Shown one piece after another: positions 5,965 to 39,280 of a DNA stretch of 42,114 nt. The DNA is taken from IMG/VR virus record IMGVR_UViG_2585427728_000007; one strand, written 5' to 3'. Below the pieces are notes generated by a model. The model had not been told where the DNA came from and ran no database searches. It saw only the letters and a list, made by a program, of their open reading frames with translations. This stretch comes from a virus. Its lineage: Duplodnaviria > Heunggongvirae > Uroviricota > Caudoviricetes. A program made the position numbers and the translations under genes. Every line of letters begins with the position of its first letter. Position 1 is the stretch's first letter.

Positions 5965-6315
5965 ATGCCAAAATCAGAAACAACCATAAAATTTACTCCA
6001 GCAATAGGCAAAGAATTGCTCTCCATAATCCAGGATAACATACCTGAAAGCGACTATAAAATACGCAGACGAATCAGAACTGCTGACTCAATTAATGCGG
6101 TTGGCACGCTCGTCGACATAACTATCATCGTAGCCACGTCGTCACCAGCTTGTATAGCCATTGCATCTATCGCAAGAAAATGGATACAGACCAGATCATC
6201 CAAAAAAATAACAATGACCACAGAGAAAGGTAAAATCGAAGTAGAAAACCTGACGTCAAAAGAACTGATTGAAGTAATGGAGCAGTGCAAGAACATCAGC
6301 TTCAAAGAGGAATAA
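5965..6315 (+). CDS. Hypothetical small membrane protein (moron gene, antisense to the tail operon)
   Basis: 116 aa ORF on the opposite strand to all flanking structural genes, in an AT-rich block; central hydrophobic segment AVGTLVDITIIVATSSPACIAIASIA; followed by a strong terminator. No recognisable family. Confidence 0.5.
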   Translation: MPKSETTIKFTPAIGKELLSIIQDNIPESDYKIRRRIRTADSINAVGTLVDITIIVATSSPACIAIASIARKWIQTRSSKKITMTTEKGKIEVENLTSKELIEVMEQCKNISFKEE

Positions 6316-18702: not shown

Positions 18703-20020
18703 TCTCGATATCCTCGTCGGTAATGGATGCCCCGATGCCGGTGACGTCAGAGTTTTCGCGCAGGTCGGTCATCGCCGCCTTACGCGTCATCAATCCGTCG
18801 CCCAGCGCGGTACTGATCGCGTTGGTGGTGTTTACGGCCACCGTTGATCGGTCAACGTCTGACATTTGCCATAGCGGGTTAAACTCAAACGTGAAATCGT
18901 CCGGCAGCGGCTTTCCGAGTTCCGAGCGGTGCATAATGTCCAGTATCCGGCGCATCGGCAGTCGTAAGCGGCGCTCCTGCAATGAGCTCACCCGGTCGTA
19001 ATAGTTGGCGAGGTCTGCATCACCAGTAGAGAAGCCTTTCGGGGATTGACCGAACAGGCGTACCAGCGGGATACCAACGGCACCGCTGATCTGCTCAGCA
19101 AACTGCGAAAGAATGTCATCCAGACCACTAAAGCTGTACTGGTGGGTTTCGAACTTATCCCGCGAGTCCATGAGCGTCATACCTTCATTGCTCTGGAACT
19201 GGCGGATCAGGTCGATGTTCTTCAGCAACGCTTCGAACGCCGGGCCTCCAAGCGCGATAAGCTCGCGCAACTTCTCCACGCTATAGGTACGCAGATGCGC
19301 TTTATAGACCAGCTGCGCCGCGCCGACAGTAGCGCTATCGAACGCAGTAAGCCGATCCCAGATACGCTCTACAACCGACATTCCCCATTCGTTTTCGGTC
19401 ATCTTCTGCTGGAATGGCAGCGTGACGCCATCAAAGCGGATCAGGCGGCTGTGATGGATGCGCCAGGCCGGAATGCCCGTTGCGGTGGTCACCACGTCGT
19501 AAAACTCAGGCTTGCCGAGGTCCGGCCCCATCTCTTTAATGCGGCGTGTCAGCACCGGGTTAATCATCCAGCGGTCGAGCGGGAGAATGCCCTTAAACTT
19601 GCCCTCGCCAATGGTTTCGAGTCGCAGCGGGGTCATTGGTGCTTGCCCCTCGATCATGATGAAGCCGACCGCGCCGCCGTAGAGGCGCGACCATTTCAGC
19701 ACGTCGTTCAGCGCATCCCAGATCTGCAACTCATCCAGTTGCGCTTCGAGGGTGCCACGGTCTTTGGCGTCAATCTCCGAAGTGATGCGAATGCCCTTTC
19801 GGGTCATATCGTCCGGGATAGCGTCGACCGCTTCACCGATAACCCACGAACCGCGATATGACCATTCCACCAGCATGCGGTTGCGGCTGGGGAAGTTCGC
19901 CCGGTAGGTCGATGCTGAATGCTGGTTAGGCGTCTGCATCCCAACGCGGGCGACGAAGTTCTCGTAGCCGTCAGCGGTGGCCTGTGCCGTTCGCTGAGAG
20001 GATTGCTTGTTTCGTGCCAT
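18551..20020 (-). CDS. Portal protein
   Basis: 489 aa ORF immediately after the terminase large subunit (start overlaps its stop) and before the head morphogenesis gene; size and order as for portal proteins. Confidence 0.7.
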   Translation of the reverse strand: MARNKQSSQRTAQATADGYENFVARVGMQTPNQHSASTYRANFPSRNRMLVEWSYRGSWVIGEAVDAIPDDMTRKGIRITSEIDAKDRGTLEAQLDELQIWDALNDVLKWSRLYGGAVGFIMIEGQAPMTPLRLETIGEGKFKGILPLDRWMINPVLTRRIKEMGPDLGKPEFYDVVTTATGIPAWRIHHSRLIRFDGVTLPFQQKMTENEWGMSVVERIWDRLTAFDSATVGAAQLVYKAHLRTYSVEKLRELIALGGPAFEALLKNIDLIRQFQSNEGMTLMDSRDKFETHQYSFSGLDDILSQFAEQISGAVGIPLVRLFGQSPKGFSTGDADLANYYDRVSSLQERRLRLPMRRILDIMHRSELGKPLPDDFTFEFNPLWQMSDVDRSTVAVNTTNAISTALGDGLMTRKAAMTDLRENSDVTGIGASITDEDIENAEDEAPPGIGELGDKPPEPPGGDPISNEPTADSAGGRGYRKWSLRWFKR

Positions 20021-21642
20021 CAGGCCTGTCTCCCTAGCAGCTCCCAGATGTTCAGGGCTGAATTCATTGGCGCGTAGCTGATCATCACCGAGTCGGCGAG
20101 GTTCGGCGACTTGGTGCCATCAGGCTGTTTATCAACAACGATTTTCCCCACGCCATTAATGGAGTAGGTCGGCTGCGACAGCTCAATGATGAGTTTGTCT
20201 TTGCTCGCCATGGCGCTGCTGATTGAGATGATTTCGTCCGGGTTGTAGGCCATGCCCTCAACCACGGCGCGATAGGTGTTCTGGAAAAGCTTGCGTAGCC
20301 ACCACCAGCTCTGGGCTTTGGCGTTGGCGAAGAAGTCCTTGTTCAGGCGTGCGGCCTGTCCGTTGTCCCCGCGCACCGCTTCATCGTCCGGATCAAATAC
20401 CGCGCCGCTACCACGAAACGGTGTGGCGAGTATTGACGGTCGGCGCGCTGCGTAACGCAGTTCGTTGATGGCGCGCGCATCGCCGCGAACGCCAGCACCC
20501 AGGCCGTCCTCGTCGAAGCGAAACTCTTCGAGGTTGTCCTGTTCGCAAAAGCCGAAGACCTTCTCAACAGACTGGTAAATGTCGCTGCCAACGCCGGACC
20601 ATTCACGCACGTTCTCCAGGAGGAAGCCGTGACGGGTCGAAAAGGCGTTTTTGTCCCGGCCTTCGTCGGCGACGTCCATCGCGCCCAGGCGTTTGCCCGT
20701 TGGCTGGATGCCCAGCTTAATATGAGCGTCGACGGCAGCCTGTACCCAGTCGGACGGGATCAGGACGCCTTCCGCAGATGCGCTGTAGTTCAGGTCAAGT
20801 TCCTGCGCTACCACCACCGGATTGTCGATTTTCTCGCATTCCCTGCGATACCACTCTTCATCCTTGCGCGGGTCATTTCGCCAGTGGAATGTGAATACCG
20901 GTATCTTCCCGCCGTGACGCTTCTGCGCGAACGGGTTCGCCATGCCGTTAACCGAACTCAGGTCGATACGGCAGCGAGTGGTTTGCGACAGCGCCGCATC
21001 AATCAGCAGAGGGCGCTGGAGGAATGCGGCCTCATCCACCAGGTAGAGCGTGGTACGGTCACCACGACCAATATTATCGCCAGCCTCGCCTTTGATAACG
21101 GCACCAGTTTCAGGAAACTCAACACGCATATATGGCGCGTGCTTCTTCTCGCTCCACGAACCGCGAAACTCTACAGGTAGTGTTTCCACGAACTTGCGCG
21201 CCTTCCAGAACAATGCTTTCGGGTCACCAGTGCTGTCGACGTATTCCTCTTTACGGGAGCCGAAACCGATAACCATTTCTTTGTTGAAGAGACAAAGCGA
21301 GCAGGCCAGTCCGATCGCGGTCCAACTGAGCCCCATTTCACGGGATTTTTCGGTAATACCATTCTCCCGATTACCCCAGCGTTCCATAATCCAGTGGATC
21401 CACTCCTCCTGCTTAGGGAATAGTAAAAACGGAATGGTCACCGGCAGGCCATAATCAATATTACGCGGGTCCGTTGTCATGCCCCAGTCGATGATGAACT
21501 GAGCCGGATTGGTTCGGTAAAACTGTTTTAGTGCAGGCAATATTTCAGGATTCTGGCGAATGCGCTGTAAGCGTTCCATCCGCCATTCAAAAACCATCTG
21601 GTAATCAGGATGTTTAAAATCGAAGGGGAATGGTAACGGCAT
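20020..21642 (-). CDS. Terminase large subunit
   Basis: 540 aa; N-terminal ATPase region followed by a nuclease region with acidic motifs ([14 protein letters not shown]); directly downstream of the small subunit gene. Confidence 0.85.
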
Positions 21643-21644
21643 AC

Positions 21645-22199
21645 TTAGCCCATCATTTTTCTATACGCCTCTGCAGCCTGCTCCGGCGTTAAGTTGGTAA
21701 TTTCTGTTCTGACTGGTCCTCCATCAGCGCCAGTCACTTCATTTTTGACGTTGTCTTTAAACGCCTGAACAGAAACATGACGCCCAAGCAACTCAAGGTT
21801 TTTAACCTTATCAGGCCATTTGATTTTCTTCAGAAGTGCGGCGCTATCTGCGGATACCATCTCGACGACATCCATACCCGATAGAGTCGTTCTCCATACT
21901 TTGGGCCAGTCTTTAATCGGCTTCAGTTCGCCATTGGCAAGCAGGATATCCAGCACGTCCATCTGGTCTATTTCAGTCAGCCGTCGCAATACATAGGCAG
22001 CGTCTATACCTACCTCTTCATTGCGTTCAGCCTTTAGCTCAGCAATGCGATCTGCTATGTCAGGTTTTGACAGGTTCTCGCTACCAGTGGCGCGAGCAGT
22101 TTTTTCGCTGTAACCCGCCCTGATAGCTGCCTGAGTGGCGTTTAAATCTTTCAGGTACTCACGGGCAAACAGCTCTTGTTTGTCTGTGAGCTTTGCCAT
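21645..22199 (-). CDS. Terminase small subunit
   Basis: 184 aa; N-terminus [35 protein letters not shown] is the characteristic helix-turn-helix of phage small terminase subunits; preceded by GGAG. Confidence 0.8.
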
Positions 22200-22493
22200 T
22201 GTTGGCTCCGTTTATCCGTTAAAAGGGATATCAGTTAAGTTATCCCGTGCAGGGTATAAGCCATTGTCGAGACCACTCATTGAATGGTCTCTGCAATAAC
22301 CGATGTCTTTCCATCAGTCCGCCACCACAAAGAATCTTTTTTGCCATAAGGCTGGAGGTTCATCTTTCAGTGGCTGCCAGTGTTATTTCCCCACTTACTG
22401 GCTTGGGGTGTTTCGCTGTACTGCCGTAACTGGTTGCCCAGAATAAATTCCGGTTTCATTATCAAGCCCACCCGTAGATAGGCTTTGTAATGG

Positions 22494-22781
22494 CTACTTC
22501 TTCAGAAATGATTCGATGAATTCACGTCGGGGATGACGATAGTTCAGAATATCTTCTGGCATCCTCATAAAGCGGTTGTTGCCGTCTTTGGCAGTAACAA
22601 AACAGCTGTGAACTCCGCAGACATCCGTTTTTATTGTGTCGCTATACTCAAAAAGCAACTGAGCCATCTTCTCTTGCCATTCTGGCGGCATAGCCTCCAT
22701 GAATACTCGCGGCATCACGCAGAACGGCGCATGCGTAAGACCAAACCACAGTTGCAGGTCTTTACGATATTCTTCATCCAT
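22494..22781 (-). CDS. Hypothetical protein downstream of the lysis cassette
   Basis: Start taken at internal ATG 22781 (MDEEYRKDLQLWFG...); the longer ORF-track version has an implausible N-terminus. No recognisable family. Confidence 0.4.
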   Translation of the reverse strand: MDEEYRKDLQLWFGLTHAPFCVMPRVFMEAMPPEWQEKMAQLLFEYSDTIKTDVCGVHSCFVTAKDGNNRFMRMPEDILNYRHPRREFIESFLKK

Positions 22782-24460: not shown

Positions 24461-24536
24461 TGGTGCTGGTTAACGGACTTGAACCGCTACCCATTCGCTT
24501 ACAAGGCGACCGCTCTACCATTGGAGCTAAACCAGC
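24461..24536 (-). tRNA. tRNA, anticodon TGT (Thr) by manual fold
   Basis: Minus-strand 76 nt GCTGGTT-TA-GCTC-CAATGGTA-GAGC-G-GTCGC-CTTGTAA-GCGAA-TGGGT-AGCGG-TTCAAGT-CCGTT-AACCAGC-A-CCA; perfect 7 bp acceptor stem, GTTCAAGTC T-loop, U33 and A37 flanking TGT, encoded CCA. Confidence 0.65.
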
Positions 24537-24541
24537 ATGTT

Positions 24542-24616
24542 TGGCGGGACAGCGTGGACTCGAACCACGATAAGAAGGTTAACAGCCTTCCGTAATGACC
24601 TTTATACGACTGACCC
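24542..24616 (-). tRNA. tRNA, anticodon GTT (Asn) by manual fold; atypical D-arm
   Basis: Minus-strand 75 nt GGGTCAG-...-GAAGG-CTGTTAA-CCTTC-TTAT-CGTGG-TTCGAGT-CCACG-CTGTCCC-G-CCA; perfect anticodon and T stems, GGTTCGAGTCC T-arm, one T-T mismatch in the acceptor stem, D-loop lacks the usual GG. Confidence 0.55.
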
Positions 24617-24671: not shown

Positions 24672-25184
24672 TTAAACGGTATGATATTTCATTCTGGCTG
24701 CCTCAAAAGCCGCAGCGGCAAGTTCGGCAGTGTCATGGTATCCAAGGTTAATACACTTTCCAGACGCATTAATTCTTGCTCTCCATTTCCCGTACTTAGC
24801 ATCCCAAGACACGCCACGGTATCCAGATTTATTATTCTTCTGAATTTTCCTGTTTTGCATATTTTCGGAATGAGTGACAAGACGAAGATTTGATATCCGG
24901 TTATCTGTTCTTACCCTGTTGATGTGATCAATAAAACCATCGGGCATGGTGCCATAAACAATCAACCATGCCAGTCTGTGAGCAGGGTATGCTTTACCAT
25001 TAATCATAATCATTAAATACCCATCAGAATTTATTGATGAGCATTTCTTGAAAGCAAAACGAGAGTTCCATGTCAAAGTGGTCCTCTCTCTCCCCTGCCT
25101 CCATCTCCAGTGAAAGTCGCCTGATGATGGATTGTAATCAACAACAGAAAGCACCATTTCTGGCGTTAATTTTATTTCTTTCAT
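24672..25184 (-). CDS. HNH homing endonuclease with AP2-type DNA-binding domain
   Basis: 170 aa; HNH motif ...DGFIDHINRVRTDNRISNLRLVTHSENMQN... plus AP2-like ...GYRGVSWDAKYGKWRARI...; AT-rich gene sitting between Q/pR' and the tRNAs. Confidence 0.75.
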   Translation of the reverse strand: MKEIKLTPEMVLSVVDYNPSSGDFHWRWRQGRERTTLTWNSRFAFKKCSSINSDGYLMIMINGKAYPAHRLAWLIVYGTMPDGFIDHINRVRTDNRISNLRLVTHSENMQNRKIQKNNKSGYRGVSWDAKYGKWRARINASGKCINLGYHDTAELAAAAFEAARMKYHTV

Positions 25185-25371: not shown

Positions 25372-25401
25372 ATTATGGCTAAATGGATAATTGCATGTCA
25401 A
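25372..25401 (-). promoter_or_regulatory. Late promoter pR' candidate (-35 TTGACA, 18 bp spacer, -10 CATAAT)
   Basis: Minus-strand TTGACA at 25401..25396 (inside the last codons of Q), CATAAT at 25377..25372; immediately followed by a terminator, as expected for a Q-antiterminated late promoter. Confidence 0.5.
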
Positions 25402-25897
25402 GGCCTTTAACAGCAACATGCTTAACTTTCTCAACACGTTTACGCATTTTGAAAGCATTTTGCATTGGCTGGTACAAAACAAATAACGACGCTTTCAGGA
25501 TGTCGTCAATTTCGTTTCTACAGGTTGCCAGTGAAGGTTTTCTCCATCCCTCGCCACCACGTCCACACATCTTGCGTGGCTTTGCAGTCGCGTGATAGTA
25601 GGATGCAATTGCTCGCTTAGATGAACCATGAGCGTAGTAGCTGAGGAGGATGCCAAAGGCTTTCTTGTCAATGTACATGACGGAATCGACGACCTGAGAA
25701 ATCAACATTCCATCATCATCATTGCACATTGGCCTTGTCATAACTCTTCCCGGCTCTACGCTCTCCATGAACTTAGCTATTACGCTGCTCATGCGCTTTT
25801 CCAGACGACCTGAATAAACCCATGCGCCCCACAGTTCAAGCCAGCCATTCAGCCACTCATGCTGTTCTTTGGTGAGGTTTAGTTCTCTTATGCCCAC
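25379..25897 (-). CDS. Late gene antiterminator Q-like protein
   Basis: 172 aa ORF at the canonical Q position (after the nin genes, before pR'/tR' and lysis genes); Cys/His-containing. Call rests on synteny rather than strong sequence recognition. Confidence 0.55.
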
Positions 25898-38243: not shown

Positions 38244-38723
38244 ATGAAAATCTGCTCAAGATGCCATCAACAGAAGGAAGAAAGGGACTTTCAAATCAGA
38301 AGAGCATCCAGAGATGGATTAACTGCCGCTTGCCGGGCTTGCCTGGCTGAATACGACAAAGAGCGCGCGGGATTGCCACATCGAGTATCAGCAAGGAGAG
38401 AATATCAATCATCGGAACTCGGCAGAGAACGGTGTAACGCAGCCAAAAAGCGGTTCATTCAGAGCAACCCATGGAAAAGAAAAGCCCACATCATCGTGGG
38501 TAATTTTTTGCGCGACGGTAAGCTAATCCGACCACCACAATGTGAGTGCTGCGGATCAGAATGTAAACCACAGGCGCACCACTGCGACTACAGCAAACCA
38601 ACCGATGTGATGTGGCTCTGCAAGTCATGTCATGTCGAGTGGCACAAACATAACAAACCTATCTACCCAGACGAGGAGCCAGTAACTCTCCCCTTCCCTC
38701 GTCACGCTATTCACGCAATTTAA
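38244..38723 (+). CDS. Zinc-finger protein, possible HNH-type nuclease
   Basis: 159 aa; N-terminal CxxC...CxxC and C-terminal CECCGSEC...HHCDY...CKSCHVEWH arrangement; sits between ssb and the exonuclease. Confidence 0.45.
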   Translation: MKICSRCHQQKEERDFQIRRASRDGLTAACRACLAEYDKERAGLPHRVSARREYQSSELGRERCNAAKKRFIQSNPWKRKAHIIVGNFLRDGKLIRPPQCECCGSECKPQAHHCDYSKPTDVMWLCKSCHVEWHKHNKPIYPDEEPVTLPFPRHAIHAI

Positions 38724-38731
38724 GGACTTAC

Positions 38732-39280
38732 ATGAATCACTTAATGGTTGACCTTGAAACAATGGGCAACGGGCCATATGCGCCAGTTATTTCTATTGGG
38801 GCGGTATTCTTTGACCCGAATACCGGAGAAACAGGAGAAGAGTTCTCGGTAAATATCTCGCTTGAGTCATCAATGCGATATCGGGCGCGTCCTGACGCTT
38901 CAACGATTTTATGGTGGATGGAACAGAGTGAAGAAGCCAGAAAATCGCTAACCAGCAACACTCAAGAGCTTTCAACGGCTCTTTCATGGTTATCTGAATT
39001 CATCATAAAGAACGCCAACCACAAACTCGTTCAGGTTTGGGGGAATGGAGCATCATTTGACTGCGTTATTCTCCGCAACAGTTATTCGCTGACAGGGCAG
39101 CCAGTTCCGTGGCAGTGGTGGAATGACCGCGACGTAAGAACAATCGTCGAACTTGGGAAGGCAATAGGATTCGACCCTAAGCGAGATATGCCATTCAAAG
39201 GAACTCGCCACAACGCGCTTGATGATGCCATCCACCAAGCCAAATACGTTTCAGCGATCTGGAAAAAGTTAGCTAAATAA
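38732..39280 (+). CDS. 3'-5' exonuclease (DEDDh / DnaQ-like fold)
   Basis: 182 aa; Exo I motif MVDLETMG (Asp, Glu) and Exo III motif HNALDDA (His, Asp). Confidence 0.7.
   Translation: MNHLMVDLETMGNGPYAPVISIGAVFFDPNTGETGEEFSVNISLESSMRYRARPDASTILWWMEQSEEARKSLTSNTQELSTALSWLSEFIIKNANHKLVQVWGNGASFDCVILRNSYSLTGQPVPWQWWNDRDVRTIVELGKAIGFDPKRDMPFKGTRHNALDDAIHQAKYVSAIWKKLAK

Follow-up and report, generated by a model that had tools for sequence, protein, structure and literature searches.

The locus between the lysis and terminase genes

The window analyzed here is the whole 42,114-nucleotide stretch of a tailed phage record (IMGVR_UViG_2585427728_000007). Features described below are on the minus strand unless stated otherwise, and the minus strand is the coding strand of every gene around the two hairpins considered here. 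Upstream of the hairpins are a Q antiterminator gene (25379-25897; PF06530), a pR'-like promoter identified by a promoter scan (25401-25372), and a tR'-like terminator called by a terminator scan (25331-25311). These are followed in the order of transcription by an HNH/AP2 endonuclease gene and two tRNAs, and then by the holin, lysozyme, and Rz genes. After Rz/Rz1, the terminator scan calls a canonical intrinsic-terminator-like hairpin, AGCCUCGCAUUUGCGGGGCU plus UUUUUAUUGCA (22826-22807). The next gene, taken from the open reading frame (ORF) list, is a 95-amino-acid (aa) post-lysis ORF (22781-22494), an accessory cassette that lies between this terminator and the type 0 stem-loop described below. 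Its match is limited to positions 139-230 of the 233-position phrog_3527 profile, whose function is unknown, and it has a counterpart in HF4s. Downstream of the 95-aa ORF is a 294-nt non-coding mosaic spacer (22493-22200), delimited by megablast and blastn searches and alignments, which belongs to the post-lysis accessory-gene slot. The spacer is followed by the small terminase gene, TerS (22199-21645; Terminase_2, Pfam PF03592, E 4.8e-40; phrog_51), the large terminase gene, TerL, and a PF06381 portal gene. The translation initiation region of TerS (22194..22209) has the Shine-Dalgarno sequence GGAG at 22209-22206 and the ATG at 22199-22197.

The original prediction placed two hairpins between the post-lysis gene and TerS, and both do lie between the stop of the 95-aa ORF (22494) and the TerS start (22199). 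The coordinates given for hairpin 2 (GAGACCA, 22269-22275; TGGTCTC, 22285-22291; 9-nt loop) agree exactly with ours. Hairpin 1 also exists (GGGATA, 22225-22230; TATCCC, 22241-22246; 10-nt loop), with a start one nucleotide away from the 22224 that had been assigned to it. As first described, these hairpins are not beyond chance, because perfect stems of at least 6 bp with loops of 3-10 nt occur once per 554 nt in the window and those of at least 7 bp once per 2106 nt.

Distribution of the spacer among lambdoid phages

Positions 22194-22500 of the window are common to 206-207 phage records at 80-99% identity overall (megablast and blastn), with 93-98% identity in more than 200 lambdoid phages. 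Carriers of the spacer include HK97, HK022, the mEp and HK phages, and P22-like Salmonella and E. coli phages, and a partial spacer is found in Stx phages, ES18, and mEp460. The copies in the window are near-identical to unannotated sequence that has long been present in the HK97, HK022, and P22 records. In E. coli, 2550 of 5426 complete genomes match the query 21900-22500, which comprises the spacer plus 300 nt of TerS, so that this count is not for the spacer alone.

The genes that adjoin the spacer vary. In SEN22, HF4s, and P22 the next gene is DUF2560/orf80, and in HK97 the spacer precedes a DUF2560-like remnant and the HNH gene gp74. In P22-type phages rha is inserted at approximately 22427, and core block B of the spacer (22300..22427) lies directly downstream of it. 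Several cassettes, including a gp49-like gene, a 23-codon ORF, and other small ORFs, are inserted after AAAGACATC (22306-22301), and in some relatives the downstream homology ends at GGATAAA.

Homology to the spacer-sharing phages stops exactly at the TerS start. The mosaic joint is ATGGCA (22199-22194), the first two codons of TerS, beyond which the homology switches to TerS; this position is based on alignments with SEN22, HK97, HF4s, and PA-1, with the blast match ending at query position 45, or window position 22194. Since TerS is joined to the spacer exactly at the ATG-GCA that opens DUF2560/orf80, its ribosome-binding region appears to have been borrowed, the initiation region having come from DUF2560/orf80. 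The 5' ends of TerS in REL606, E308, and Pantoea phage PA-1 are homologous to that in the window, and their upstream DNA is unrelated; in E308, an HNH gene abuts TerS. Only 28 of the 5426 complete E. coli genomes have the spacer-TerS joint, compared to 241-365 with TerS homologues. The presence of the spacer beside unrelated downstream genes, together with that of TerS homologues beside unrelated upstream DNA, indicates that the hairpins move together with the post-lysis slot, independently of the terminase.

The hairpins and DNA packaging

Headful packaging had been suggested for this phage from its terminase types, and the homology of TerL to headful enzymes backs this suggestion. TerL is without a Pfam hit and matches phrog_2. 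The protein shares 50% identity with BcepB1A TerL and, across 96% of its length, 38.7% identity with TerL of the 9NA-like phage Sasha; the identity of its nuclease domain to that of a P22-like TerL is 34%. Given that 9NA-like phages use pac-directed headful packaging (PMC8954984), headful packaging is plausible here.

The hairpins had also been considered as possibly pac-related. They could be the pac site, or part of it, recognized by the small terminase of this phage, by analogy with SPP1, in which pac spans the start of the TerS gene (gene 1). TerS is a Terminase_2 protein and TerL groups with headful enzymes, the pac site of headful phages is usually in or beside terS (PMC8022706), and for SEN34, which has a related terminase, the packaging site was reported as not identified (PMC5261728). 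However, the distribution of the spacer makes a pac role extremely improbable. The spacer is near-unchanged in the cos phage HK97 and in phages with the P22 pac, which in P22 and L lies inside gene 3 (PMC8022706) and is also present in SEN22, a carrier of the same spacer (PMC5261728); the spacer is shared with Stx phages as well. The TerS homologues of REL606, E308, and PA-1 lack the hairpins, homology to the spacer-sharing phages halts at the TerS start codon, and the joint is rare among TerS-bearing E. coli genomes. The hairpins are thus not co-inherited with the cognate small terminase, as a pac site would be. In addition, the window contains no match to the 22-mer of the P22 pac site at up to three mismatches. 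The homologous block in HK97 occupies 38655-38962 of the 39732-bp linear record, and the roughly 770 bp between it and the right end contain the HNH gene. We take the ends of this linear record to be the cohesive ends, and a block this far inside the record end indicates that the spacer is not cos. Because the spacer is common to hundreds of lambda-like phages with unrelated packaging enzymes, the hairpins are almost certainly not the packaging site of this phage.

Predicted folding of the spacer RNA

The inverted repeat originally noted at 22269-22291 is the core of a larger imperfect palindrome of 35-43 nt. Based on sequence, inverted repeat, RNA fold, covariance model, and covariation, we assign hairpin 2 a full extent of 22259..22301 and place it in type I of the CA/GA-loop stem-loop family described below. 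In the sense RNA, an 8-bp lower stem (22301-22294 with 22266-22259) is separated by a 2x2 internal loop (C22293 A22292/G22268 A22267) from a 10-bp upper stem (22291-22282 with 22278-22269), which is closed by the loop AAU (A22281-U22279). The predicted fold has an energy of -24.2 kcal/mol (z = -6.5), a value equaled by none of 500 shuffled sequences, and hairpin 2 scores 62.7 bits (E 5e-15) against the covariance model.

Hairpin 1 (22225..22246), assigned from its sequence and fold, is a weak stem-loop, terminator-like in form, within the leader of the gene that follows. On the sense strand, GGGAUA (22246-22241), a 10-nt loop, and UAUCCC (22230-22225) are followed by UUUU (22224-22221). Its predicted folding energy is -8.3 kcal/mol (z = -3.1), and inverted repeats of 6 bp such as this one are at chance frequency. 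Hairpin 1 is near-invariant among homologues and shows no covariation. P22 has kept the stem with a different loop, and phage L/ST64T-type spacers have lost hairpin 1 by deletion, suggesting that it is dispensable in phage L.

The sense strand of the whole spacer (311 nt folded) has z = -5.1, and the 106-nt stretch 22200-22305 has z = -4.7 on the sense strand versus z = -3.3 on the antisense strand. The fold includes a predicted helix at 22374-22321, the 3' side of which was fixed by the sequence search pattern. Other predicted helices in the spacer (22433-22377, 22408-22389, and 22319-22298) were rejected because they are mismatched in many homologues or span a mosaic joint.

A family of stem-loops with a CA/GA internal loop

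A sibling of hairpin 2 (type 0; 22454..22496) is located 190 nt upstream, with a foot that starts 1-2 nt past the stop codon of the 95-aa ORF. Its sequence is TAG-C-CAUUA-CA-AAGCCUAUC-UACG-GGUGGGCUU-GA-UAAUG. It scores 61.4 bits against the covariance model, has a predicted fold of -18.3 kcal/mol (z -5.5), and keeps its pairing across 12 variants. In relatives including Ayreon, a hairpin of this family is directly behind the post-Rz/Rz1 terminator; here, the 95-aa ORF is inserted between the two. The type I sequence, to which hairpin 2 belongs, is UAUUG-CA-GAGRCCAUUC-AAU-GAGUGGUCUC-GA-CAAUG, and the type II sequence, CAUUA-CA-AAAGCCAYUC-CCUACA-GAGUGGCUUU-GA-UAAUG, is found in Ayreon, mEp460, and Stx phages. 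A search with the flanks alone recovered three further upper-stem sequences, types III-V, in the related locus L026 and in REL606. The architecture of the family consists of a lower stem of YAUUR/YAAUR, an almost invariant CA/GA internal loop, an upper stem of 9-10 bp with variable sequence, and a loop of 3-6 nt. The internal loop is fully closed in one natural variant (L052), which has UG in place of GA, so it is not strictly required.

Across 45 distinct variants of at least five sequence types, collected with search patterns that fixed the flanks as well as some of the 3' arm of types I and II, 97.5% of cells are paired and both sides have changed in 8 of the 14 pairs, with cell counts that overstate the number of independent events because many variants are close relatives. 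None of 500 shuffles did as well, and slid controls were 28-49% paired. The covariation of hairpin 2 is consistent with a selected RNA structure. Across the family, G·U pairs outnumber A·C mismatches 91:11, which favors the sense late mRNA over a DNA cruciform or an antisense RNA.

When applied to the 42-kb window, the covariance model identifies exactly two family members, each with a far higher score on the late-gene strand than on the complement. A weak match at 6155-6219 on the plus strand, within coding sequence, was attributed to chance, as its flanks fit and its stem is absent. In 920 kb of related loci the model gives 171 hits, one or two per locus, clustered around the post-lysis slot. 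For types 0 and II, about ten unrelated genes have their stop codons 0-2 nt ahead of the foot of the hairpin. In L026, two family members bracket an HNH gene upstream of the holin gene. We also found a natural recombinant hairpin, whose 5' arm is of type II and whose 3' arm is of type I; the two arms are mismatched, which points to a crossover inside the element.

Hairpin 2 could instead be an operator in double-stranded DNA, with its inverted repeat bound by a dimeric protein of phage or host origin, as its form of a 35-bp imperfect palindrome with conserved outer half-sites (ATTRCA/GAYAAT) might suggest. We consider this highly improbable because the inner 20 bp vary freely with their complementarity kept, which is the opposite of how an operator behaves, and because G·U pairs are mismatches in DNA. 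Furthermore, the phages that carry the element are very different from one another and have no candidate regulator in common.

Another explanation is that the hairpins have no function as RNA and are either neutral relics or purely DNA-level recombination linkers that hitch-hike with a recently spread spacer. Identity of 93-98% is typical of recently exchanged lambdoid modules and by itself does not prove constraint, several mosaic joints are in or beside the hairpins, and the mismatched-arm recombinant would fit such a history. In T4-type phages, intergenic stem-loop cassettes can drive modular shuffling (PMC2839356). Nonetheless, we regard this explanation as rather unlikely, given that at least five sequence types have kept the two-stem architecture through double-sided changes and that an excess of G·U over A·C is unexpected for a DNA-level palindrome. 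The constant orientation of the elements and their placement just after stop codons also argue against it.

Coding potential and similarity to known elements

Three small ORFs lie in tandem on the sense strand of the spacer, each in a different frame; their lengths are 30, 28, and 22 codons and their starts are near 22459, 22363, and 22280. If the spacer coded for small proteins, the hairpins would be incidental to coding sequence. In favor of coding, no break in ORF3 is seen in any of 69 homologues, P22 has an annotated counterpart of it ('orf25'), and the stop of ORF2 overlaps the start of ORF3 (ATGA). Set against this, ORF2 is disrupted in about 15 of 80 homologues by a frameshift, a premature stop, or an ATA start, ORF1 has an indel in HK97 and ORF2 has one in HF4s, and the start codon of ORF3 is absent from type II relatives. 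The substitutions in ORF2 and ORF3 are virtually all non-synonymous, and the plus-strand ORFs of the spacer are also broken by indels among homologues. The small ORFs thus show neither a kept frame together with a synonymous excess nor any other coding constraint, and we attach almost no credence to a protein-coding spacer. The annotated orf25 of P22 is probably not a gene.

Searches for known RNA and DNA elements gave little. With 4227 Rfam models at gathering thresholds, the window yields two tRNAs and no other match. At E values up to 10, the spacer and six homologous loci add just sub-threshold noise, and no match in the spacer overlaps either hairpin. The nearest resemblance is to Proteo-phage-1 RNA (RF03044) at 22372-22435, with 17.4 bits versus a gathering threshold of 42 (E = 2). 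This candidate was rejected because it is below threshold, is not reproduced in homologous loci (no match in six of them at E up to 10), and has a loop-tail pairing that is broken in many homologues; our literature searches found nothing on Proteo-phage-1. A promoter scan of 22200-22500 on both strands detected no promoter-like site. Two candidates picked out by eye, an IHF site in hairpin 1 and a sigma-70 promoter (TTGCCA...GATAAT), were rejected for unfit spacing or consensus. The stem-loop family has no member in the DLP12 prophage of K-12, the spacer region is not described in the BTP1 transcriptome paper, and we found no description of the family in the literature searched. The family of hairpin 2 therefore appears to be previously undescribed.

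Transcription termination

The presence in this operon of a Q gene, a pR'-like promoter, and a tR'-like terminator raises the question of whether the hairpins are Rho-independent terminators or attenuators within the late operon, which would stop transcripts that are not modified by Q and would be passed after Q antitermination. In a lysogen, for example, they would block read-through that starts at promoters of accessory genes. A UUUU stretch follows hairpin 1, a type II relative is annotated as 'terminator' in the GenBank record of phage Ayreon, and intra-operon terminators whose role is unknown have been noted in phage L (PMC8022706). However, the terminator scan that called 22826-22807 and 25331-25311 called neither hairpin. 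Hairpin 2 has a good stem, but the sequence after it is GACAAUGGCUUAUAC (tail GACAAUGG), with no U tract, and hairpin 1 combines only 6 bp (-8.3 kcal/mol) and a 10-nt loop with U4 alone; neither hairpin unites a G+C-rich stem, a short loop, and an immediately adjoining U-rich tract. Moreover, many relatives have a canonical terminator immediately upstream of the family hairpin, and a second terminator would be redundant there. Termination partly fits the type II stem-loops and does not fit the type I hairpin of the window, and we consider it an unlikely explanation overall.

Proposed role of the stem-loops

Our preferred explanation, to which we assign a probability of about one-half as a whole, is that these are hairpins of a non-terminase spacer that punctuate the late mRNA and serve as linkers for cassette exchange. 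The spacer would be part of the slot for accessory genes ('morons') that in lambdoid phages separates the lysis cassette from the head genes, and the stem-loops would be read on the sense strand within the Q-antiterminated late mRNA. A regulatory role, one of the possibilities raised in the original prediction, is plausible for the RNA, and the most likely function would be as RNA punctuation of the polycistronic late transcript. An interrupted duplex of approximately 20 bp directly behind gene ends could be a processing signal, with the geometry of an RNase III-like substrate. Alternatively, the stem-loop could protect 3' ends and in this way determine how stable the lysis, accessory, and packaging segments are relative to one another. 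Palindromes can also persist through DNA-level processes, which counts against the RNA-punctuation explanation. The conserved flanks may provide short homologies for the exchange of accessory cassettes and, in this phage, also of the terminase module. Hairpin 1 with its U4 would be at most a leaky attenuator for transcripts without antitermination.

By analogy with other mobile systems, we can also speculate that the stem-loops act in cis as dedicated boundaries within a system of gene cassettes in the late operon of lambdoid phages, although we judge this very unlikely. The folded single strand, either RNA or DNA, with its conserved foot and internal loop would be recognized by a host or phage factor. 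The stem-loop would give each cassette its stop-codon-proximal end and would direct both expression, through processing or stability, and exchange between phages, which in this phage would include the capture of a foreign terminase module.

Implications

The practical result of this analysis is negative in that the hairpins should not be annotated as pac or cos. The packaging site of this terminase family, which includes SEN34, 606R2, and the REL606 prophage, is better sought inside terS. At the same time, the late operon of well-studied phages such as HK97, HK022, P22, and the Stx phages contains a covariation-supported stem-loop family that has no Rfam match. The family, which always borders accessory genes, also occurs through prophages in a large proportion of E. 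coli genomes. If the stem-loops do control the processing or stability of late mRNA, they would represent an unrecognized layer of late-gene regulation. If they are recombination linkers, they would explain in concrete sequence terms how mosaic joints, ATGGCA among them, come to coincide exactly with gene boundaries.

Comparison with known systems

The general kind of element described here, a conserved intercistronic stem-loop at mosaic boundaries, is familiar. Like phage pac sites, such as the 22-bp pac in gene 3 of P22 and those of Sf6 and SPP1, the hairpins adjoin a small terminase gene in a phage with a headful-type TerL. They differ from pac sites in being inherited independently of TerS, in occurring also in cos phages and in phages that use the P22 pac, and in having no similarity to P22 pac. 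The weak likeness to Rfam Proteo-phage-1 (RF03044) involves a loop, AAGCCAGUAAGUG, and a tail, AACACUGGCAGCC, in a neighboring part of the spacer, and the match covers neither hairpin.

Morons in lambdoid phages are bounded by intrinsic terminators. The stem-loops resemble these terminators in lying directly 3' of accessory genes in the late operon, and a type II member is annotated as a terminator in Ayreon. They differ in that the copies in the window have no U tract, a canonical terminator is already present upstream (22826-22807), and the conserved lower stem and internal loop are not features of terminators.

Phage mRNAs also contain RNase III processing hairpins, among them the T7 R1.1-type intercistronic signals and the sib retroregulator of lambda. 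The family shares with these hairpins an intercistronic site in a long phage transcript, a coaxial duplex of approximately 20 bp, a small conserved internal loop, and sequence-variable stems. In hairpin 2, the predicted stems of 10 bp and 8 bp (-24.2 kcal/mol) would provide about two helical turns of interrupted double-stranded RNA. The two differ in that the internal loop of the family is symmetric (2x2, CA/GA) whereas the T7 loop is asymmetric, and there is no sequence similarity.

The promoter-early stem-loops (PeSLs) of T4-type phages are mobile regulatory cassettes (Arbiol et al. 2010, PMC2839356). Both they and the stem-loops described here are short, conserved, intergenic, and located around variable non-essential genes in a hyperplastic region, with recombination between copies; in our family, this is seen in the approximately ten genes that it adjoins, the bracketed HNH gene of L026, and the recombinant hairpin. 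PeSLs differ from the family in hosts, which are lambdoid here, and in sequence, which is unrelated; no sigma-70 promoter accompanies the stem-loops here (22200-22500 has no promoter-like site on either strand), and the type I copy in the window has no U tract. Together with integron attC sites, the T4 PeSLs supply the functional analogy for the speculation that the stem-loops may be boundary elements of gene cassettes.

Results and Discussion

Sequence comparison places a mosaic joint exactly on the start codon of the small terminase gene TerS (22194-22199, minus strand), where TerS (ATGGCAAAG...) is fused to the DUF2560/orf80 gene's ribosome-binding region and its ATGGCA (ATGGCAGAG...). Among 5426 E. 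coli genomes, just 28 have this joint between spacer and TerS. TerS, on the minus strand, is also a mosaic in itself, with one segment at 21645-21827 and the other at 21828-22199. In phages of the vB_EcoM-606R2 type, DNA homology spans the large terminase gene TerL, the portal gene and only the 3' third of TerS (to about 21827), and Pantoea phage PA-1 is 88.6% identical to the first 164 nt of the window's TerS.

A homing-endonuclease-like gene with HNH_3 and AP2 matches (24672-25184, minus strand) lies upstream of holin. On one side it has the pR'/tR' region and on the other a pair of phage-borne tRNA genes, tRNA-Thr(TGT) and tRNA-Asn(GTT), which are located between Q and holin (24461-24616, minus strand). 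In L026, one of the related loci, a similar HNH gene occupies the equivalent position with a member of the hairpin family on either side (two members); the HNH_3 and AP2 gene in the window has no family member beside it. The 95-aa post-lysis ORF (22494-22781, minus strand) is an insert, with the canonical terminator (22826-22807) on one side and the type 0 hairpin (22454-22496) on the other. Its match to phrog_3527 is confined to the C-terminal part of that family (positions 139-230 of 233), and the ORF may be a truncated form or one with a single domain.

Annotations in two other phages touch the hairpin family. In P22 (NC_002371.2; locus positions 1650-1727), the annotated orf25, the counterpart of the window's 22-codon ORF3, begins within the type I hairpin loop. 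The pattern of substitutions among homologues suggests that orf25 is not a real gene. In phage Ayreon (MF807953.1), the GenBank "terminator" feature at locus positions 1176-1221 coincides with the type II member of the family (model match 1174-1220), not with the canonical GC-rich terminator just upstream.

Part of the spacer (22372-22435, minus strand) weakly resembles the Rfam Proteo-phage-1 RNA (RF03044), with 17.4 bits and E = 2, where the gathering score is 42. The two are alike in the loop (AAGCCAGUAAGUG) and the 3' tail (AACACUGGCAGCC). Six homologous loci did not reproduce the resemblance, and many homologues have a disrupted loop-tail pairing.

The exact hairpin-1 pattern (22225-22246 in the window) also occurs on short genome contigs (loci L173-L175, L180 and L181) assigned to Cellvibrionaceae, Nanosynbacter, Bacillota and Collinsella MAGs. 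Most likely, the contigs are mis-binned enterobacterial phage DNA.

TerL (540 aa; 20020-21642, minus strand) matches phrog_2 and has no Pfam-A or NCBIfam match at E <= 0.001. It is 50% identical to the TerL of BcepB1A and 39% identical to that of 9NA-like phages. E. coli E308 (NZ_CP030281.1) has an HNH endonuclease gene (locus positions 654-1151) that overlaps the 5' end of a homologue of the window's TerS. An HNH gene beside the terminase is typical of HK97-like cos phages, so a direct test of how this terminase family packages DNA may be worthwhile.
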